Assembly (NCBI RefSeq): GCF_938046015.1
Contig: NZ_CALIXW010000035.1
Coordinates: 18,989 to 82,988 of the forward strand
Length of the DNA: 64,000 nt
Source of the DNA: an uncultured Porphyromonas sp.
GTDB taxonomy: Bacteria > Bacteroidota > Bacteroidia > Bacteroidales > Porphyromonadaceae
Direction of reading: 5' to 3'
The notes under the pieces: model-generated
Told to the model about the DNA's origin: nothing
Seen by the model: the letters and a program-made list of their open reading frames with translations, nothing else
The model's database searches: none
Shown: in pieces, positions 3,988-61,523 of the stretch
Numbering within the stretch: the first letter of the stretch is position 1
Layout of the letters: each line of letters begins with the position of its first letter
Position numbers and translations under genes: made by a program

Positions 3988-5199
3988 CTAGTCCTTGGGG
4001 GCAAGGAGGCGCGCGGCCATAGCCTGCCCGAGGGCCCAGCTGAGGTCGAGCACGGAGCTGAGGTCGGACATCTTGAGCTCGACGGCCTCACCGACGAACT
4101 CCCACTTCATCTCCTCGGCGAAGGGGATCAGCTTCTTGAGGGCAGCGGGCGCCCAGGTGTAGGAGCCGAAGGCCGTGTAGAGTCTGTCCTTGACGTCACG
4201 GATGCGGATGAGGTTCATCAGATGGGCTATGGGCGTGAAGAGCTCCCCGCAGTAGGTCGGGCTGCCGATGATGAGGCCGCGGTAGCGGAAGACGTCGGCG
4301 AGGATGGCTGAGGGGTCGGACTTGCTCACGTTGTGGCAGACGATGCGCTTGATGCCCGCTGCCGAGAGGCTCTGGGCGATGACGTCGGCCAGCTGCTCCG
4401 TATTGCCATACATCGAGCCGTAGAGGATGACCACGCCGTCCTCCGCCTCGAAGCGCGACAGACGGTCGTAGAGGCGGCGCGCCTCCCCGAAGCCCTCGGG
4501 CGTCCAGACCACACCGTGCGCGGGGCAGAGGTGGTCGATCGTGAGGCCCTGCTTGTCCATGTTGGCCAGCGCCTTCTGTACGAAGGGGCCGTACTTACCG
4601 ATGACGCAGGCGTAGTAGCGCTCCATCTCGCGGAGGTAGGCCGAGCGGTCGCCGAGCTCGCTGTCGCGCAGGATGCCGTCCAGCGCGCCGAAGGAGCCGA
4701 AGGCGTCGGCCGTGAAGAGCACCCTATTGCGCTGCTCGTAGGTGAACATCACCTCGGGCCAGTGCACCATGGGCGCCATGAGGAAGAAGAACTCGTGCCC
4801 GCCTATGCTCAGCGCGTCCCCATTCTTGACCTCGTGCAGCCCCTCGGTGATCCCGTGGAAGCCGCGCAGCATCTCGAAGGTCTTCTTATTGCCCACGATC
4901 TTGAGCTCGGGGTAGCGCTTGCGCAGCAGCCCGATGGAGCCGCCGTGGTCGGGCTCCATGTGGTTGATGATGAGGTAGTCGAGGGGACGGCCCTGGAGGA
5001 TAAGGTCGAGCTTGTGGAAGAAGATGTCGCTGTAGCAGACGTCCACCGTGTCGATGAGCGTGGTCTGCTCGTCGACGATCAGGTAGGCATTGTAGGCAAC
5101 GCCCTGCGGGAGGCTCCACATGTTCTCGAAGAGCGCCTTCATCCTGTCGTTGACCCCTACGTAGTAGATCGAGTCGGTGATCTGTGGTACTTGGTACAT
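3988..5199 (-). CDS. FprA-family flavodiiron protein (metallo-beta-lactamase domain plus flavodoxin domain)
   Basis: 403 aa. HMEPDHGG di-iron motif in the N-terminal lactamase-like fold; C-terminal flavodoxin-like region (ILYGSMYGNTEQLA). Confidence 0.8.
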   Translation of the reverse strand: MYQVPQITDSIYYVGVNDRMKALFENMWSLPQGVAYNAYLIVDEQTTLIDTVDVCYSDIFFHKLDLILQGRPLDYLIINHMEPDHGGSIGLLRKRYPELKIVGNKKTFEMLRGFHGITEGLHEVKNGDALSIGGHEFFFLMAPMVHWPEVMFTYEQRNRVLFTADAFGSFGALDGILRDSELGDRSAYLREMERYYACVIGKYGPFVQKALANMDKQGLTIDHLCPAHGVVWTPEGFGEARRLYDRLSRFEAEDGVVILYGSMYGNTEQLADVIAQSLSAAGIKRIVCHNVSKSDPSAILADVFRYRGLIIGSPTYCGELFTPIAHLMNLIRIRDVKDRLYTAFGSYTWAPAALKKLIPFAEEMKWEFVGEAVELKMSDLSSVLDLSWALGQAMAARLLAPKD

Positions 5200-5285
5200 A
5201 GTCGTGTGTAGTTAGTGTTCCTCCTTTGCTGGAGTGCGGCGCTAGCGGCTGGGAAGCGGGGCTCCCACAGCCGCTAGCGCCTATC

Positions 5286-6131
5286 CTATTTTGCTTGGTC
5301 TGCGATTGGGTGGCGGTAGGCGTAGACGATGAGGGCCAGCCCCGCCAGGATGAAGGGGATGCTGAGGAGCTGCCCCATATTGACGCCCCACTGGGCGATG
5401 AGGTCGTACTCCCAGCGCTCCTGCACGTTCTTGATCCCCTCGACGAGGAAGCGGAAGCCGAAGACGAGCACGAAGAACCAGCCCACGATGAGCCCCGAGT
5501 AGCGCCGTGCGGCATCGCGCTGCCAGTAGAGATACATACAGACGCCGAAGGTCACCAGGTAGGCCAGCGCCTCGTAGAGCTGTGTCGGGTGGCAGGCGGG
5601 GATAGCCTCGGGATCTAGTCCTCGGTACTCGATGGCGCGCAGGAAGCGGAAGCCCCAGGGTAGGTCCGTAGGGCGGCCGAAGATCTCGCTATTCATCAGA
5701 TTGCCCAGGCGAATGAGCGCTGCCGCCAGACCCGTAGGCACGGCCAGACGGTCGAGCGTCCAGAGGATGGAGCGCTTCGTCACGCGCCGCGAGTAGAGCC
5801 ATACCGCGAGGATGATCCCCAGCGTGCCGCCGTGGCTAGCGAGCCCACCCTCCCAGATGGCGAAGATCTTCGCGGGGTGCGCTAGGTAGTAGCCTGGGTC
5901 GTAGAAGAGGACGTGCCCTAGGCGCGCCCCGACGACGGTGCCCACCACTACATATATATATAGGGAGTTCATCCACTCGGGGTCGAGGCGCTCGCGGCGC
6001 CACATGCGCTCCTCGATCATAGGCCCGAGGATGAGCAGCCCGAGGGCGAAGAGTAGACCGTACCAGCGTATGTCGCGGCCGAGGATCTCGAAGATCACGG
6101 GATCGACGTCCCATGTAATGGCTCCTAGCAT
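5286..6131 (-). CDS. lgt: prolipoprotein diacylglyceryl transferase
   Basis: 281-aa polytopic membrane protein. Lgt signature region ([10 protein letters not shown]...[10 protein letters not shown]...[10 protein letters not shown]). Confidence 0.85.
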
Positions 6132-7160: not shown

Positions 7161-7356
7161 CTGAAAAGCCCGCAGAGCCTAGGGGGTGCAAGTGGCCTCC
7201 TGGTCTAGGGCGGGCGAAGCTGTCCTCTGGGACGGGGGACGGGGCGCAGCGGGCTGCCCCGCGGTGAGGGGCGGCTCGGACTGCGCCCGCCCTTAGCTCG
7301 CAGCGCGCTGCGAGCAAGGTGGAGCCGAGATTTCTTATATAACTTTTCGCCCTCCC

Positions 7357-7397
7357 CCTTATCCCTCAGCGTGCTGACTGGCGTCCCTCAGCGCTGG
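7357..7397. repeat. short array (2 units) of the 22-bp near-palindromic GAGGGAYRTCMGTCAG-family repeat
   Basis: ccttatccctcagcgtgctgactggcgtccctcagcgctgg. Same unit family as at the other intergenic loci listed below. Confidence 0.7.
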
Positions 7398-12093: not shown

Positions 12094-12137
12094 AAAGCCC
12101 CCTAGCGTCACTCGGACGCTAGGGGGCTTTCTGTTTT
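12094..12137. terminator. bidirectional intrinsic terminator between convergent der and pgk
   Basis: aagccccctagcgtc/actcg/gacgctagggggctt followed by tctgtttt. The reverse strand is also T-rich after the stem. Confidence 0.65.
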
Positions 12138-12156
12138 GCTTAGCTCAGCGAGGGGC

Positions 12157-13419
12157 TTATTCCTCGATAGCAGCGATACCGGGGAGCTTCTTGCCCTCGA
12201 TGGCCTCGAGGAGGGCACCGCCACCGGTGGAGACGTAGGATACCTTGTCGGCGTAGCCGAACTTGTTGACGCAGGCTACGCTGTCGCCACCACCCACGAG
12301 GGAGAAGGCACCCTTAGCCGTAGCCTCAGCGATGGCAGCAGCCACAGCACGCGAGCCGTCGGCGAAGTTGTCCATCTCGAAGACACCCGTAGGACCGTTC
12401 CAGAGGATGGTCTTGGACTCGAGGATGACCTTACGGTAGGCCTCGATGCTGTCGGGGCCGATGTCCATACCGATCCAGCCTGCGGGGATGTTGTCGTTCT
12501 GCGCGAAGGCGGTCTTAGCGTCGTTGCTGAAGGCGTCGGCGATCTTGGAGTCCGTGGAGAGGACGAGGTTCACGCCGTTGGCCTTGGCCTTAGCGACGAT
12601 CTCGCGTGCCAGGTCGAGCTTATCCTCTTCGCAGAGCGAGGCACCGATGTTGCCGCCGTTGGCCTTGAAGAAGGTGTAGGTCATAGCACCGGTGAGGATG
12701 AGGTTGTCGACCTTACCCAGCAGGTTCTCGATGATGTCGATCTTGGACGATACCTTGGATCCACCCATGATGGCGGTGAAGGGGCGCTTGATGTCCTGCA
12801 GCACCTTGTTGACGGCGTCGACCTCCTTACCCATGAGGTAGCCGAAGAGCTTGTGGTCGGCGTCGAAGTAAGCAGCGATGAGGGCCGTGGAGGCGTGTGC
12901 GCGGTGTGCCGTACCGAAGGCGTCGTTGACATAGACGTCAGCCAGAGCAGCGAGCTTCTTGGTGAACTCCTTCTGGCTCTCCTTAATGGCCTTCTTGGCA
13001 GCGGCCTTCTCTTCGTCCGTAGCGTCCTCAGCCAGGCCGCGGGGCTTGCCTTCCTCCTCAGCGTAGAAGCGGAGGTTCTCCAGCAGGAGGGCCTCACCGG
13101 GCTTGAGGTTGGCTGCGAGTTCGCGCGCCTCCTCGCCTACGCAGTCGGGGGCGAACTTGACGTCTACACCAAGGCACTTGGAGACGTGGGCGAGGATGTG
13201 GCGGAGAGAGAACTTATCCTCGACCTTCTTGGGACGGCCGAGGTGCGAACCGATGATGACGGAGCCACCGTCGGCAAGGATCTTCTTGAGCGTAGGCATG
13301 GCAGCACGGATACGCGTATCGTCCGTGATGTTGAAGTCTGCGTCCAGGGGCACGTTGAAGTCCACGCGGACGAAAGCCTTCTTGCCTGCGAAATTGAACT
13401 GGTCAATGTTCATGTGCAA
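12157..13419 (-). CDS. pgk: phosphoglycerate kinase
   Basis: 420 aa. N-terminus [19 protein letters not shown] and the hinge/ATP motifs of Pgk. An alternative start is 6 nt downstream (MNIDQ). Confidence 0.9.
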
Positions 13420-13456
13420 TCTTGTTTAACGTTAATTGTAAAAGCTTTTACCAGCG

Positions 13457-13464
13457 CAAAAATA
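13457..13464 (-). promoter_or_regulatory. candidate -7 box (TATTTTTG on the - strand) for pgk
   Basis: TAnnTTTG motif about 37 bp upstream of the pgk ATG. Confidence 0.45.
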
Positions 13465-13611
13465 CGGAATTGCGGTGACTTAGCCCGCGTGTCGCGCCTA
13501 GGCTCGAAACCGATGGATATCAGGCCGAAGGATCGACTGGGTGCGCTCTGATATTTACCACAGAATATGGCTGAGTGGAATTGCTAGGCCTTGCCTATAT
13601 CTTGCTGGGTC

Positions 13612-14823
13612 TAGGGTATGCGTCGCGGGCTGATCGGTGTGGGGCGTGGCGAAGGACTAAGGCGGGGGTAGTGCTGGGGTGGGTAGGATAAGCCCCAGCG
13701 GGGCGACCCGATCAAAGCCCAGGGTGAGCAGCCCTGGAAGGGCGACCAAACCCTGGGTAGCCCGAGGTAAAAAGGATAGAGCCCTACAGGGGCGATCCAT
13801 AAAGCAGTTATAGCGCTGTCGCTAGTTTCACTCCGCTTTTGCTTTCGTTTGTTTTGAGGGTCGCCCCTGTAGGGCTCTTTAAGTATGGAGCTGCTTGCCC
13901 CAGGGTTCCGTCACACCTGCAGCGTTCCCTCACCCTGGGCTTTGGAAGGGAGCACCCCGCAGGGGCTTGCGCGGCCGCTCGTACTTAGCTTGGTTTAGGG
14001 TATGCGTCGCGGGCTGATTGGTGTGGTGCGTGGCGAAGGACTAAGGCGGGGCAGTGCTGGGGTGGGTAGGATAAGCCCCAGCGTGGCCACCCGATCAAAG
14101 CCCAGGGTGAGCAGCCCTGGAAGGGCGACCAAACCCTGGGTAGCCCGAGGTAAAAAGGATAGAGCCCTACAGGGGCGATCCATAAAGCAGTTATAGCGCT
14201 GTCGCTAGTTTCACTCCGCTTTTGCTTTCGTTTGTTTTGAGGGTCGCCCCTGTAGGGCTCTTTAAGTATGGAGCTGCTTGCCCCAGGGTTCCGTCACACC
14301 TGCAGCGTTCCCTCACCCTGGGCTTTGGAAGGGAGCACCCCGCAGGGGCTTGCGCGGCCGCTCGTACTTAGCTTGGTGTAGGGTATGCGTCGCGGACTGC
14401 TTGATGTGGTGCGTGGTGAAGGGCTAAAGCGGGGGCGGTGCTGGGGCGGGTAGGATAAGCCCCAGCGGGGCGACCCGATCAAAGCCCAGGGTGCGCAGCC
14501 CTGCAAGGGCGACCAAACCCTGGGTAGCCCGAGGCAAGAAGGATAGAGCCCTACAGGGGCGATCCTTAAAGTAGCTGTAGTGCTGTAGGTAGTTTCACTC
14601 CGACTTTGCTTTTGTTCGCTTGACGGGTCGCCCCTGTAGGGCTCGTTAAGTATGGGCGGTTTGACCCAGGGTTCCGTCACGCCTGCAGCGTTCCCTCACC
14701 CTGGGCTTTGGAAGGGGTCGCCCCGCAGGGGCTTGCGCGGCCGTTCGTACTTAGCTTGGTTTAGGGTATGCGTCGCGGGCTGCTTGATGTGGTGCGTGGT
14801 GAAGGGCTAAGGCGGGCTCGGCC
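13612..14823. repeat. tandem array of about 3.2 copies of a ~384-bp non-coding unit built from nested hairpins
   Basis: The string tagggtatgcgtcgcgg recurs at 13612, 13996, 14379 and 14762 (period 383-384). Copies 1 and 2 are nearly identical; copy 3 is more diverged. Each unit holds a 20-bp perfect inverted repeat (agagccctacaggggcgacc ... ggtcgcccctgtagggctct) around a ~58-nt loop, plus two cccagggt...accctggg hairpins. Confidence 0.9.
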
Positions 14824-14995
14824 GAGGGATAGTAGTCTGGACGCTGAGGGATAGCAGCCAGCAGGCTGAGAGACCGAAGAGGGGCGGTTAAGGGGTATTG
14901 GTCAGGACGCTGAGGGATAGCAGTTAGGGTGCTGAGGGACGTCAGTGGCGCGCGTGAGGGCTATCGGTTACGGTGCTGAGGGCTATCAGTCAAGG
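14824..14995. repeat. array of about 8 tandem 22-bp GAGGGA-YR-TC-family units
   Basis: gagggatagtagtctggacgct / gagggatagcagccagcaggct / ... / gagggctatcagtcaaggtgg, directly abutting the 384-bp array. Confidence 0.8.
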
Positions 14996-15189
14996 TGGTT
15001 GGGGGCAGGTGGGGAGGTCGCCCTGGCTCCTTCGAGGCGTCCCTGCGTCCCTTGGGACAGAGGGCGGACGAGGTACACTTACTCCGCACCCAAGCAAATG
15101 AAGAGCAGCGCCCCCTACCGACCGAGCCTAGGCTGGGGCGATAGGGGGCGCTGCTGTGGCGAGGGGATGAAGCCTGCGCTATCCTAGGG

Positions 15190-15810
15190 CTAGAGCTCGT
15201 CCTTGATATCCTCGAGCTCCACGAGCTTGTTCATGATGGCGTAGATCGTCAGGCCGCTGGGGCTGTGGATCTGTAGCTTCTTGGAGATGTTGCGCCTATG
15301 GGTGATGACGGTGTGGGTGGAGAGGTAGAGCTGTCCCGCGATCTCCTTATTGGTCATCCCCTTGACGACGCAGATGATGATCTCACGCTCGCGGGGCGTC
15401 AGCATCTGTGCCTCGAGATTGGCCGAGGCAGCAGCCTGCTCGTTCTGCAGCAGGATGTCGATGGCCTCGGAGATCTGGGCTGGGCTGTCGATGAGGCGGA
15501 TCACACCGTCGTACTCACGGAGGATCAGGGGGTCGCAGCTGCCGTAGTCGATGGCCATGAGCTTGGTCTCGAAGGCTAGATCGGGGAGCTGTGCGCGCGG
15601 GTTGGCCCCGGTGAGCATGGGGTTGATGAGGTAGATGTCTGCCGAGATGACGGCGGCCACGTCCTGCCACTCACGGCGCTGCTCGTCCATGAGGTAGATG
15701 ATCTGCGCCTTGTAGTGCTGCAGCTTGCGTAGCTGCGCCTCGAGTCCCGCGCGTACGATAGCGGAGGGCTCGGCGATGGCTATTTTGACCGAGGTGAGCA
15801 TAGGAGGCAA
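15190..15810 (-). CDS. LuxR-family transcriptional regulator (atypical receiver-like N-terminus, C-terminal HTH)
   Basis: 206 aa. C-terminal LTPREREIIICVVKGMTNKEIAGQLYLSTHTVITHRRNISKKL is a LuxR/GerE helix-turn-helix. Confidence 0.7.
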   Translation of the reverse strand: MPPMLTSVKIAIAEPSAIVRAGLEAQLRKLQHYKAQIIYLMDEQRREWQDVAAVISADIYLINPMLTGANPRAQLPDLAFETKLMAIDYGSCDPLILREYDGVIRLIDSPAQISEAIDILLQNEQAAASANLEAQMLTPREREIIICVVKGMTNKEIAGQLYLSTHTVITHRRNISKKLQIHSPSGLTIYAIMNKLVELEDIKDEL

Positions 15811-19251: not shown

Positions 19252-19355
19252 CTGATGGGTATCCGTCAGAGCCTTGAGGGACGTCCCTCAGAGGAGTGAG
19301 GGGTATCCCTCGGACGGCTGAGGACTATCGGTCAGTGAGCCGAGGGCTATTGCTT
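19252..19355. repeat. array of about 5 units of the 22-bp near-palindromic repeat
   Basis: gggtatccgtcagagcctt / gagggacgtccctcagaggagt / gaggggtatccctcggacggct / gaggactatcggtcagtgagcc. Confidence 0.8.
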
Positions 19356-19603
19356 CGCCGCGCGAGCTCTATCCATGAGCCTTGCTTGTCCTCCCAGTCG
19401 ATTGCGTACGTCCAACCAATCAGCCCAGCGCAGTCTATCAACCAGCCAGTGCAGCCTGCTAACTAACCCAGTGAGCTCCATCCCTCGGGCAGCCCAGCAG
19501 CCGTCTCCTGCCGCGTGCCCCTCGGGCGCTGCCTTCCTTTACCCGCTGCGAGCGAGGAGGGGAGCGCGAAGCTATAGAGTAAGCCTCCTTTGATCCCTGC
19601 TAT

Positions 19604-19965
19604 TCGCTAAGGTCAAGCGGCTGAGTAAGCCCTAGTGGGACGATCTGTGTCACTCGCTAAGGTCAAGCGGCTTGCTAAGCCCCAGCGGGGCGATCCGTGC
19701 AAAGCCCAGGGTGAGGGAACGCTGTAGGTGTGACGGAACCCTGGGTTAAGTTCCCCAAACATAAAGAGCCCTACAGGGGCGACCCTTAGACGGAGCAGCT
19801 GTGAAGTCGGAGCAGCATTCCTCGGCGCTGCGAGCGTTTTAAGGGTCGCCCCTGTAGGGCTTCATAGCTATTTATCTAGCCTACCCAGGGTTTGGTCGCC
19901 CTGGCAGGGCTACGCACCCTGGGCTTTGTATGGGTCGCCCCGTTGGGGCTTGTCCTCCCCGTTTG
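19604..19965. repeat. rearranged, inverted copy of the 384-bp element, with a 45-bp tandem duplication of its aagccccagcggggcga module
   Basis: Contains the reverse complement of the ccccagggttccgtcacacctgcagcgttccctcaccctgggcttt module. Keeps the same 20-bp perfect stem agagccctacaggggcgacc/gggtcgcccctgtagggct, but with a different ~58-nt loop. Also carries the reverse complement of the caaagcccagggtgagcagccctgg...ccctggg module. Confidence 0.8.
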
Positions 19966-21280: not shown

Positions 21281-21413
21281 CGGAAATTTATCCACATCAC
21301 CTAAGCGCTGCTAGGTCTCGGTGCATAATCTCCTCCCGCCTCGCTCAGCTGGGGGCGAGACTCGCGGTCGAAGGCGCGTCAGAGGGGCTCTAAGCCAAGG
21401 GGAAAAGGGCTCC

Positions 21414-21500
21414 TGAGGGATATCCGTCAGACGCCCGACGGACGGCAGTCAGCGCCGTGAGGGACGGCAGTCAGCGGGCTGAGGGCTATCCCTCGCGGCG
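21414..21500. repeat. array of about 4 units of the 22-bp near-palindromic repeat
   Basis: gagggatatccgtcagacgccc / gacggacggcagtcagcgccgt / gagggacggcagtcagcgggct / gagggctatccctcgcgg. Confidence 0.8.
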
Positions 21501-22569: not shown

Positions 22570-23095
22570 CCGCGATATCGAAGCCCTCGAGGTCAAGCTC
22601 ATCCTCGCTGAAGGACTCATCCCCGAAGTCCTCGCCCTCGAAGGGCGTCCCAGAGATGGCCGCAGCGCGTGTCAGCGACTCCTCGAAGGAGGCGATCTGC
22701 TTCGGCGCCTTGCCCTCACTGAGGATCATCTGGGGGGTCTCGAGGCTCTTGCCTGGCTGCAGCTCCTCGACCTCGATGAAGAGGCCGCGCTCACTGAGCA
22801 TGTCGAAGACGAAGAAGAGGTGGTCGCCACGGCGCTCGAGCTTGTCCTCCAGCAGCGTGTCGGCCATCAGCAGGCTGTCCTCGTCGGGGCGTGAGCCCAT
22901 GTCCATGCGGGTGATCTCCTCCTCCTTCTGCCAGTCCTCGTCGCAGACGTAGAAGCTCGTCAGCTCGTCGGGACGGTAGCCCAGGCTGTCGAGGATGAAG
23001 TCATTGAGCTGCAGGAAGCTCGCCTCGGAGTCGATGAGTAGCTCGCGGCGGAAGAAGTCGTTCTCGTCCGAGAGCAGGGATAGACGGTATACCAT
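22550..23095 (-). CDS. hypothetical acidic protein, possibly pRiA4b ORF-3-like family
   Basis: 181 aa with a highly acidic C-terminus (EGEDFGDESFSEDELDLEGFDIADAESLY). No confident family recognised by eye. Confidence 0.35.
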   Translation of the reverse strand: MVYRLSLLSDENDFFRRELLIDSEASFLQLNDFILDSLGYRPDELTSFYVCDEDWQKEEEITRMDMGSRPDEDSLLMADTLLEDKLERRGDHLFFVFDMLSERGLFIEVEELQPGKSLETPQMILSEGKAPKQIASFEESLTRAAAISGTPFEGEDFGDESFSEDELDLEGFDIADAESLY

Positions 23096-28464: not shown

Positions 28465-28610
28465 AGATTGGAATAGCTAAATACGTCTTTATTCGTCTGC
28501 AGGGATAGAACCGCCCTTGTGGGCAAAAGGTTACGAGCCCTGTGCCCTACCTGTCGCACGGCTGCTTCCCCTAGGCTTACCGCCCGAGCGCGGCTGTGGG
28601 GGAGGCTTCT

Positions 28611-28696
28611 TGAGGGATATCAGTCAGCGCCGTGAGGGACGTCTGTCAGGTGCGTCAGGGACGTCCGTCAGCGCCGTGAGAGATATCCCTCAGCGC
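28611..28696. repeat. array of 4 units of the 22-bp near-palindromic repeat, including a perfect palindromic end unit
   Basis: tgagggatatcagtcagcgccg / tgagggacgtctgtcaggtgcg / tcagggacgtccgtcagcgccg / tgagagatatccctcagcgc. Confidence 0.85.
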
Positions 28697-28910
28697 AGCC
28701 CCCTGGAAGCTGGGCGCTCGCTACCCCCTTGCCGCTGGCGGCAGTCGTAGACCACCCGTGGGGGCTCCCCGTAGCGCGGCTGTGGGGCTTCGTTCGCTTG
28801 GTGGCGAGCTAGCTCTAGGCTGAGCCGAGCTGATGGGGCTCCCCCCTTAGGCAGGGGCTGTCGCTCCCTTAGCGGGGGGGCGCCGCGGCTAGCTCGCCGA
28901 ATGGGAATAG

Positions 28911-39972: not shown

Positions 39973-40117
39973 GGCAAAATCGTCCAGCCAGCCCCGAGCC
40001 GCGCCCTCGGCTCGGACGCAGCGCCTCCTCGCCTCCTCTAGGAGCCCTGCCCTGCCTGGGGCTGGAGTCCAGGGGCAAAGCTACTCCGCTGAAGCCGAGG
40101 CTCAAGGGGGAGGGAGC

Positions 40118-40205
40118 GTGAGGGATATCCGTCAGCTCCGTGAGGGATGTCAGTCAGGCGCGCGAGGGACGTCAGTCAGCCTCTCGAGGGATATCCCTCA
40201 GAGCG
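40118..40205. repeat. array of 4 units of the 22-bp near-palindromic repeat
   Basis: gtgagggatatccgtcagctcc / gtgagggatgtcagtcaggcgcgc / gagggacgtcagtcagcctctc / gagggatatccctcagagcg. Confidence 0.85.
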
Positions 40206-40350
40206 CTGGCAGAGGGCCGTCGGCGCGCTTAGCCTCTGCCTTAGCTGCGCTTATGAGGGGCTAAGGGCTTCGCCTTGAGGGCCTCGCCGAGCAGTATAGC
40301 GGAGGACTTTACTCAGCTGTGAGCTAAGTCGCTAGGCGCTCCCCGCCCTT

Positions 40351-44821: not shown

Positions 44822-45063
44822 GTTTATTCGTTGTTTGCTATCTGCACGGCTATCCTGGCGCGGACAGCACTAGATGTAAAGGTAACAAAAAACATGCCAT
44901 CCCGGTTGCCCCTGTCAGCTCTGAGGCTGCTGGGTGAGCCTTCGGGGGCTCACATCCTGCGTCCTCGGCGGGCACCCTGTGCCGCCCTTAGCTGCCTCTG
45001 CGAGCGCTGTGGGGCGGGGCCCTCGACGAGCAGCGCGTGCGCGGAGCCCTTGCTGGGGCTAGG

Positions 45064-45170
45064 CTGACCGATATCCCTGGGGCAGCTGACTGATACCCAT
45101 CGCGCGGCTGAGGGATACCCCTCGGCTAGGCTAAGGGATATCCGTCAGCGCTCTGAGGGATATCCGTGAT
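45064..45170. repeat. array of about 5 units of the 22-bp near-palindromic repeat
   Basis: ctgaccgatatccctggggcag / ctgactgatacccatcgcgcgg / ctgagggatacccctcggctaggct / aagggatatccgtcagcgctct / gagggatatccgtgatg. Confidence 0.8.
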
Positions 45171-45271
45171 GAAGGTGAGGGGGAAGGGGGGACGGAGCCA
45201 CCGCGCGCTCGCCGCGAGGAAGCCCCCTAGGACGAGCGGGCTGGCCCGTCCCGTGTACGCGGATATTGTCG

Positions 45272-55571: not shown

Positions 55572-55660
55572 GTGTCTTCCCCTCCTGCTCCTCACCCCGC
55601 CTCGCGCCTAGAGAAGGGGACGAAGCGCCCCCGCAGAGTCTCGAGCTAAAGGGGAGGACC

Positions 55661-55746
55661 CGTGAGGGATATCAGTGGACGCCGTGAGGGTCGTCCGTCA
55701 GCACCGTGAGGGACGTCAGTCAGCAGGATGAGGGATATCCCTCACG
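55661..55746. repeat. array of 4 units of the 22-bp near-palindromic repeat
   Basis: gtgagggatatcagtggacgcc / gtgagggtcgtccgtcagcacc / gtgagggacgtcagtcagcaggat / gagggatatccctcacgg. Confidence 0.85.
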
Positions 55747-56004
55747 GAGCCAGCAGGGAGCACTTGGCGTCCGCCCTGCCCTTTGGGGGCGAGCGGAGCA
55801 GTCGCGAGGGGTGGGTTTGGAGCTACGTCTTGCCTTCGCTCGGCGTAGGGTGGGCGTGTGGCGCGCTGGGAGATGGGAATCTTTACACTTCGGGGGCTTG
55901 CTTTCAAAAACTTACCTGAGCACCTCAGCAGCCCGCTCGGACGAGCTGCCGAGCCCAAGGGTGCTAGAGGCTCAGTGGGGACTTTGTAGTTCGGCGAAAT
56001 AGCC

Positions 56005-61284: not shown

Positions 61285-61437
61285 TGCCTTGGAGGCTGGC
61301 GTGGCTGGGGGCGTGTCGGCCTCTGGTAGGGCGGATTTCGTCTGGGGCGTCCTCTCTGTAGGCTAGCTTCGCCTCGTCTTGCTCTTCGTCTCGTCCTCCT
61401 TGCCCTTTGCCTTTCTCCTACTATATCCTAGGCGCTT

Positions 61438-61523
61438 TGACTGATATCCCTCAGCGCTCTGACTGACGTCCCTCAGTCTCGTCCCCCTTATCCCTCAGCA
61501 GGCTGACTGATGTCCCTCAGCGC
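61438..61523. repeat. array of 4 units of the 22-bp near-palindromic repeat (opposite orientation)
   Basis: ctgactgatatccctcagcgctct / gactgacgtccctcagtctcgtcc / cccttatccctcagcaggct / gactgatgtccctcagcgcggtg. Confidence 0.85.

Follow-up and report, generated by a model that had tools for sequence, protein, structure and literature searches.

A tandem array of head-to-head palindromic units upstream of pgk in an uncultured Porphyromonas: a probable member of a dispersed REP/BIME-like mosaic repeat family

The bacterial interspersed mosaic elements (BIMEs) of Escherichia coli bind IHF and gyrase. BOX of Streptococcus pneumoniae, a modular intergenic repeat in an AT-rich host, keeps the fixed order A-B(n)-C, and the Correia (NEMIS) repeats of Neisseria and the ERIC/IRU repeats of Enterobacteria are single units bounded by terminal inverted repeats (TIRs), accompanied by target duplications (TA for Correia) and often co-transcribed with neighbouring genes. 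To our knowledge, families resembling BIMEs or REP sequences (repetitive extragenic palindromes of about 20–40 nt) are poorly documented in Bacteroidota. At one foot, REP hairpins have an unpaired tetranucleotide, GTAG or CGTC, that is conserved (PMC3733652). The TnpA_REP subclass 2.6 occurs in Bacteroidota, flanked by 'atypical secondary structures' (PMC6006769), and P. gingivalis harbours BrickBuilt/MITE-PgRS, which are MITEs (miniature inverted-repeat transposable elements) with internal minisatellites and TIRs matching insertion sequences (ISs) (PMC4596501). Here, we analyzed a tandem array of long palindromic units situated between pgk and a LuxR/GerE-family gene in a 64,000-nucleotide stretch of an uncultured Porphyromonas sp., referred to as the window. 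By exact-sequence look-up, the host is Porphyromonas sp. oral taxon 275 or 'uncultured Porphyromonas sp.'. The array is probably a locally amplified member of a dispersed, non-coding, REP/BIME-like mosaic repeat family of high-GC oral Porphyromonas (the HMT-275 group).

Tandem Repeats Finder (TRF) assigned to the array 3.2 copies with a period of 383 bp, 93% matches and no indels (score 2081), in line with the preliminary description, made from the sequence alone, of about 3.2 head-to-tail copies with a period of 383–384 bp. By the unit identity matrix, the first two units of the window belong to one type (A) and unit 3 to another (B). According to BLAST within the window, unit 2 shares 97.9% identity with unit 1, 89.3% with unit 3 and 93.8% with the terminal 64-nt partial copy, as expected from the earlier statement that the first two copies are near-identical and the third is about 90% identical. 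Since the units are mutually diverged by 2–10%, individual units could be distinguished. Six human metagenome assemblies, independent of one another (L001–L006), contained the pgk-array locus, and the A-A-B order of the window was found again in one of them (L001), which tells against the copies being assembly artefacts. The tandem array observed in the window was confirmed to be real.

Each 383-bp unit consists of a palindrome of ~300 nt and a locus-specific spacer, S, of ~85 nt. Alignment of 49 copies and module mapping resolved the palindrome into two copies of a triple-hairpin block, M-9-H-24-M, joined head to head. The M module, GCCCY-NNN-RGGGC with GAYC at its foot, is a REP-like mini-hairpin of 17 nt, and H is a 40-nt hairpin, CCCAGGGT...ACCCTGGG, which encloses an inner mini-hairpin and occurs in two variants, HB and HA. 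The inner stem reads GCCCT/AGGGC in HB and ACGC/GCGT, or AGGC/GCCT in one lineage, in HA; the two are compensatory versions of a single design. HB is formed by CCCAGGGTG...CCCTGGG around an inner M-type mini-hairpin, GCCCTGGAAGGGCGACC. The order within the unit is M-HB-M, a 61-nt loop and M'-HA-M', to which spacer S is added. The two cccagggt...accctggg stem-loops previously noticed in each unit correspond to two CCCAGGGT...ACCCTGGG hairpins, detected in all three units.

Other parts of the initial picture needed adjustment. The inverted repeat claimed to be perfect over 20 bp was present in all three units, but its stem is composed of 18 perfect pairs, one T:G and 2 pairs; its left arm is agagccctacaggggcgaTcc (ending in GGCGATCC, not in GGCGACC as first given), and about 59–61 nt, rather than ~58 nt, separate the arms. 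The CCCC-AGC-GGGG mini-hairpin was intact in units 1 and 3 but mutated in unit 2 (CCCCAGCGTGGCC). In core 1, the inner M pair is extended into a central hairpin with 29-nt arms and 86% complementarity, and the pairs 123–139 with 200–216 of this hairpin were retained in 97.3% of cells across the 49 copies. The palindrome is not limited to this centre, the entire 300-nt core being one imperfect palindrome. A semi-conserved tail, GCRCRGCCGYT, followed the outer right M in most dimer copies (e.g., window positions 14735–14750), and a purine-rich stretch, RGGAGGAY, preceded the outer left M, so that the element extends a little beyond its M-to-M span and is less symmetric than this span.

When one unit was folded, as proposed with the preliminary description, the fold was far more stable than those of shuffled sequences. 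The full unit as RNA reached −192.7 kcal/mol (z = −5.4) for the + strand and −167.3 kcal/mol (z = −6.0) for the − strand, and the core as DNA (core 2) reached −73.6 kcal/mol (z = −5.7); no shuffled sequence folded as well in the tests of full-unit RNA and core DNA. Comparable folding of both strands is expected of a DNA palindrome. The positions of the modules and of the surrounding features are collected in Table 1.

Table 1. Array, modules and surrounding features in the window (positions in nt).
Feature	Position	Strand	Basis and remarks
Whole tandem array	13604–14816	none	TRF, unit BLAST, unit identity matrix
Array units	1, 13604–13986; 2, 13987–14369; 3, 14370–14752; partial, 14753–14816		
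Core 1	13680–13975	+	M-HB-M / loop / M'-HA-(degenerate M'); 49-copy alignment, module map
Core 2	14063–14358	+	Dimer as core 1; outer left M mutated (CCCCAGCGTGGCC), outer right M degenerate
Core 3	14447–14741	+	Most complete dimer: M-9-HB-23-M-61-M'-22-HA-10-M'
Central long hairpin	13778–13878 (core 1); equivalents 14161–14261, 14546–14644	+	Inverted-repeat search
HB hairpin	13718–13757; equivalents 14101–14140, 14485–14524	+	Module map
HA hairpin	13899–13939; equivalents 14282–14322, 14665–14705	+	Module map; partner variant of inverted HB; inner stem ACRC/GCGT
Spacer S between cores	14359–14446; other copies 13604–13679, 13976–14062, 14742–14816	none	
Second, single dimer copy	19629–19949	−	Opposite orientation; gapdh–ytxH intergenic region
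pgk	ATG at 13413	−	Pfam
Bacteroidota-type −7 box TATTTTTG	13457–13464	−	Regex scan; upstream of pgk, ~45 nt from its start codon
22-nt minisatellite	14820–15004	+	TRF, repeat search; units like GAGGGATAGCAGYCAG + 6 nt; flanks the array on one side
26-nt-arm palindrome	15104–15155	−	Just downstream of the LuxR-family gene; terminator-like hit
LuxR/GerE-family gene	Stop at 15190	−	Pfam
22-nt minisatellite sites, nine intergenic in 64 kb	7353–7394, 14820–15004, 19253–19346, 21412–21494, 28591–28704, 40104–40225, 45062–45181, 55648–55769, 61416–61523		

The building blocks of the array were not confined to it. The window contained 22 occurrences of the M motif, GCCCYNNNRGGGCGAYC, as compared with 0.58 expected; 18 copies were exact or module-linked, all within two intergenic clusters, and four isolated one-mismatch matches (window positions 22634, 30458, 33184 and 55778) are of uncertain status. 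A second dimer copy in the window, 76% identical to the unit, was present in six out of six strains (L001–L006). At its edge, a 50-bp tandem duplication (19592–19691, 78% identical) adds an extra, degenerate M.

The inner-M 19-mer matched 96 metagenome loci, and the proteins looked up from loci with M/H modules belonged to the same Porphyromonas group as the window. These loci (808 kb) contained 496 M, 208 HB and 36 HA modules as well as 359 units of a separate 22-nt repeat, and 47 full-length core copies were found at roughly 20 further locus groups. The spacings were fixed: 9–10 nt from M to H, 23–25 nt from H to M and 55–60 nt from M to M'. Among 33 complete head-to-head dimers, 28 were HB/HA heterodimers, and tail-to-tail pairs were present as well. 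The blocks also formed direct arrays (n = 24, 2–8 blocks each, with periods of ~90, 111 or 160 nt), and whole dimers were arranged into higher-order arrays at five other loci, with periods of 445–512 bp (the one in L010 was detected through motif spacing). The notion that such arrays are uncommon did not hold for this lineage. Two scans of viral contigs and a BLAST search of plasmids gave no match to the family motif, and a broad scan of genome contigs with the inner-M 19-mer gave only three chance matches, in unrelated phyla. The clusters occupied 18 tandem, 13 divergent and 8 convergent gaps (n = 39), which is near random expectation, as far as rough GC3-based gene calls and partly redundant loci allow such counting. 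An array of the 22-nt repeat lay within 300 nt of 42 out of 53 clusters, almost always on a single side. The unit of this minisatellite is GAGGGAYRTCNGTCAG followed by 6 nt, often with a palindromic GAGGGATATCCCTC variant.

The conservation of the family was assessed on 49 aligned copies in about 20 groups, each comprising the copies of one orthologous locus or tandem set. Between groups, the modules were 83% identical, and the linkers with the central loop 39.5%, i.e., about random; within groups, 5.0% of module sites varied vs. 9.8% of linker sites (Fisher p = 1e-7). The slower change of modules in place, together with the fixed spacing, indicates that the modules and their spacing are constrained by selection or by inter-copy conversion. 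The covariation analysis across copies, also suggested at the outset, demonstrated that hairpin pairing was kept in 97.2% of cells and that double-sided changes were concentrated in the inner H stem; in HA, 11 copies had GC in place of AU, 11 had CG in place of GC and 3 had GC in place of CG. Departures from pairing comprised ~52 G:U and ~38 A:C cells, and with such a rough balance neither strand is favoured. Between the orthologous copies L011/L042 and L019/L092, identical in their linkers, HA and inverted HB replaced each other (alignment columns 255–278). Such a swap of a whole module in place suggests short-tract gene conversion between modules.

Spacer S matched the array alone and none of the 96 related loci (blastn-short), which points to local amplification of the 383-bp repeat and not to repeated insertion. 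The unit order was A-A-B in the window and L001, A-B-B in L002 and A-A in L004–L006; L003 contained a 100-N gap within the array, and L002 had two identical units. At another orthologous locus, five strains differed by indels of 92–93 nt (one M-HA block) and of 88–90 nt (one or two M-HB blocks), and the junctions of these block-length indels fell inside M. Whole-block indels whose junctions lie in M are the hallmark of direct repeats undergoing slippage or unequal recombination. The option of a recombination hot-spot, raised in the preliminary description, was thus strengthened by strains differing by whole units and by breakpoints inside M at the second locus. An inverton gained no support, the core orientation relative to the flanks being identical in seven out of seven strains. 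A CRISPR-like arrangement was rejected, as one and the same linker recurs between the repeats of a direct array (arrays 93–95% identical).

Altogether, these observations lead us to propose that direct repeats on either side of the dimer would have undergone replication slippage or unequal homologous recombination, and that the 383-bp array would have arisen, and would alter its length, in this way. The partial fourth spacer of 64 nt may be the mark of an original flanking repeat: it suggests that the dimer was formerly bordered on both sides by similar sequence, from which the first duplication would have started. Spacer S itself may represent a decayed tract of the 22-nt repeat, as hinted at by one suggestive 12/19 match found by eye. 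The array would act at the DNA level. Spreading to new loci would use recognition of single-stranded-DNA hairpins by a trans-acting enzyme of the REP-associated tyrosine transposase (RAYT)/HUH type or other, and, given the Bacteroidota-centred RAYT subclass 2.6 (PMC6006769), the most plausible mobiliser would be an HUH enzyme that recognises hairpins.

Several points weigh against placing the array in a mobile REP/BIME-like family amplified locally. No cognate enzyme was detected: no open reading frame (ORF) with an HUH...Y motif was found in the window and 105 loci (~930 kb), and tblastn with E. coli RayT and IS200 TnpA gave no match over the same ~930 kb. Pfam scanning of 27 window ORFs assigned 24 to housekeeping families, left three (two of these spurious) without a match and revealed no transposase. 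No target-site duplications were seen at the dimer feet in 18 non-redundant copies, where the longest shared flank strings averaged 2.8 nt vs. 3.6 nt for random pairs; the boundary is fuzzy and could hide a short duplication. Among the ~20 groups, no linker sequence was common to two non-orthologous copies, so there is no sign of recent transposition. The foot of M is GAYC(C)/GGRTC and differs from the REP tetranucleotide, GTAG appearing only inside the inner-M stem-loop CCCCTGTAGGGC. The slower evolution of modules in place could mean a host-level function and not selfish DNA. Finally, the copy numbers in L001–L006 rest on short-read metagenome assemblies, of which L003 is gapped.

The possible host-level function leads to the foremost alternative, which we nevertheless regard as unlikely: the M and H hairpins together with the 22-nt repeats would be putative sequence-specific protein sites, and the array a multi-site platform for a nucleoprotein scaffold kept by host selection. 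The module sequences are near-invariant even at unpaired positions, their spacings are fixed while the linkers are unrelated, and the density of substitutions in modules is two-fold below that in linkers at orthologous loci, but short-tract gene conversion or selection for mobility would yield the same conservation pattern. The clusters are regularly linked on one side to arrays with a period of 22 nt, i.e., two helical turns (42/53), and divergent, promoter-containing gaps are not avoided (13 out of 39 clusters). On the other hand, no candidate binding protein came up, the free variation of copy number from strain to strain speaks against a strict need for a given dosage, and in a related species whose PGK is ≥90% identical, the 9.3-kb stretches around pgk, which lies in a different neighbourhood there, contained no modules.

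A broader version of host maintenance appears quite unlikely. In this version, the M/H blocks and the 22-nt arrays would form a system of intergenic sites of fixed geometry, dozens to hundreds of them throughout the genome, read by a dedicated protein (a domesticated HUH enzyme or a nucleoid or regulatory factor, with extruded hairpins or duplex DNA as its target), or else an expressed family of multi-hairpin RNAs. If it were true, the unit-number polymorphism, e.g., that of the 383-bp array upstream of pgk, would tune a local function.

The origin of the 300-nt palindrome as a classical TIR-type MITE, i.e., an IS deletion derivative mobilised through recognition of its inverted ends by a DDE transposase, with tandem duplication as a later event, is very unlikely. 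The size of ~300 nt, the inverted ends AAGCCCC...GGGGCTT, the intergenic position and the multiple dispersed non-coding copies would suit such an element, and P. gingivalis does have MITEs with internal minisatellites (BrickBuilt; PMC4596501). Conservation, however, extends across six internal modules instead of being confined to the termini, half-elements alone form direct arrays, and no target-site duplications were seen at the feet of the element, whose boundary is fuzzy. No transposase turned up in the window or among the ORFs checked at nine loci between inverted modules, all of which were translated repeats. The BrickBuilt/ISPg TIR and the BrickBuilt 23-mer were absent from the window as well. 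The MITE-like option of the preliminary description therefore stands as far as a non-coding, dispersed hairpin repeat is concerned and lacks support for a MITE in the strict sense, as neither a target-site duplication nor a matching IS end nor a transposase was found, the DNA examined containing no IS.

Still more improbable is a structured RNA array in which each unit would be transcribed as a multi-hairpin RNA of ~300 nt with a cellular role. The very stable fold, the conserved hairpins with some covariation and the T:G of the central stem, a G:U wobble on the + strand, are compatible with it, but both strands fold comparably, the departures from pairing do not favour G:U over A:C, and the two dimer copies of the window are oppositely oriented relative to flanking transcription. 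Scanning of the whole window with Rfam 15 at gathering thresholds gave no hits; a permissive scan of 13400–15250 gave only sub-threshold generic miRNA-hairpin models, the best being a plant one with 37 bits vs. a threshold of 55. A regex scan revealed no Bacteroidota −33/−7 promoter in or adjoining the units, no sigma-70-like site was detected, and there were only weak terminator-like sites, on the − strand, at the central hairpin. These results tell against the structured-RNA option considered initially. The statement that no consistent ORF is preserved across copies was upheld: only short, non-equivalent ORFs overlap the units, and the longest of them (128 aa) had no Pfam match.

The chance that a single element was wrongly expanded by assembly is negligible: in its favour, the repeat exceeds the short-read length, L003 has its gap and L002 its identical units, but the units differ by 2–10%, A-A-B was repeated in the independent sample L001, every assembly has at least two units, and similar higher-order arrays exist at five other loci.

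The array occupies most of a 1776-bp gap between two − strand genes. The −7 box upstream of pgk is the region's only box of the Bacteroidota type and lies outside the array, and the palindrome downstream of the LuxR-family gene is probably the terminator of this gene, bounding the repeat-filled spacer. With the box on one side and the terminator-like palindrome on the other, the array lies between a terminator and a promoter, where it is probably a neutral or weakly architectural filler. A 471-aa ORF without a Pfam match (12136–13551, + strand) runs antisense to pgk; such spurious long ORFs are common in GC-rich DNA.

In a related Porphyromonas (L106–L113), PGK falls into the same 90%-identity cluster, and pgk, at 4001–5287, has a different neighbourhood: a 2-phosphosulfolactate phosphatase gene upstream, an amidohydrolase gene downstream and an upstream gap of only 235 bp. 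M, H and the 22-nt modules were not found in the 9.3 kb around this pgk. In the synteny comparison, no metagenome locus overlapped the window genes, and none therefore provided an empty site for this array.

Two other repeats were encountered in the metagenome loci. A third repeat type, CCTTGGGAGSA..., with periods of 67, 90 and 157–160, was found in L015 (3730–4080), L016 (11828–12175) and L091 (5577–6008); in L015 and L016, both mapped, it fills the gap between tail-to-tail M-HB-M blocks. A 54-nt tandem repeat (18 codons per unit, 6.5–7.8 copies, 86–89% identical) was found in L027 (1498–1911), L098 (5090–5512) and L099 (2663–3018). This repeat has no relation to the hairpin family and is probably protein-coding.

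The array is best taken as a mosaic repeat specific to this lineage, and neither as a new RNA gene nor as a defence locus, and the M/H repeat family of Porphyromonas is apparently undescribed, though of an ordinary kind. It adds an apparently undescribed REP/BIME-like family in Bacteroidota with testable features: the fixed-spacing triple-hairpin block, the strong preference for heterodimers, the slowly changing modules, the one-sided linkage to the 22-nt repeat and the unit-length polymorphism. In practical terms, the M/H arrays are likely points of breakage and collapse in metagenome assemblies of oral Porphyromonas, and they could act as variable-number tandem repeat (VNTR) markers in strain typing.

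Among the described systems, the Correia and ERIC/IRU repeats share with the Porphyromonas family the character of dispersed intergenic imperfect palindromes of 100–300 bp able to form long DNA/RNA hairpins, but they are not known to consist of repeated sub-modules or to occur in tandem. BOX is similar in having distinct boxes, one of them tandemly repeated a variable number of times, stable stem-loops and no encoded transposase; its sequence is unrelated, and neither inverted dimers nor higher-order arrays of whole elements are known for it. BrickBuilt belongs to the same genus and likewise combines non-coding intergenic hairpin sequence with a minisatellite of 22–23 nt period and strain-variable copy number, whereas the M/H blocks have no counterpart in its description (PMC4596501). 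The period of the 22-nt minisatellite and the genus recall the 23-nt minisatellite of BrickBuilt, which is placed between a leader and a tail bearing the TIRs; the sequences, however, are unlike. Homology to BrickBuilt was rejected: searches of the window for its TIR GAGACCTTTGCA and its 23-mer minisatellite AGAYCATARTATCCTCTCRTRTG, with ≤1 and ≤3 mismatches tolerated, respectively, gave 0 matches.

The closest resemblance is to the REP/BIME families. Like these, the M/H modules are short, GC-rich, imperfect palindromes of high copy number located between genes; they alternate in orientation with fixed short linkers into mosaics, with conserved stems and variable loops; they form head-to-head dimers with a preference for heterodimers of two variants, as do the Y and Z REPs; and they build clusters and tandem arrays of variable length (PMC3733652, PMC3116915). 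The differences concern the M stem of only 5 bp, the triple-hairpin block with its hairpin-in-hairpin (H), the regular linkage to a 22-nt minisatellite and the lack of a 3'-end bias, as judged from rough gene calls. Compared to REPIN-RAYT systems, in which the repeats flank a cognate single-copy HUH-Y1 transposase (RAYT) gene, no RAYT was found in the ~930 kb examined, and the host belongs to Bacteroidota. With the REP tag absent, no 3'-end bias and no cognate transposase found, we file the Porphyromonas repeats outside the named REP families, as a family of the same kind.

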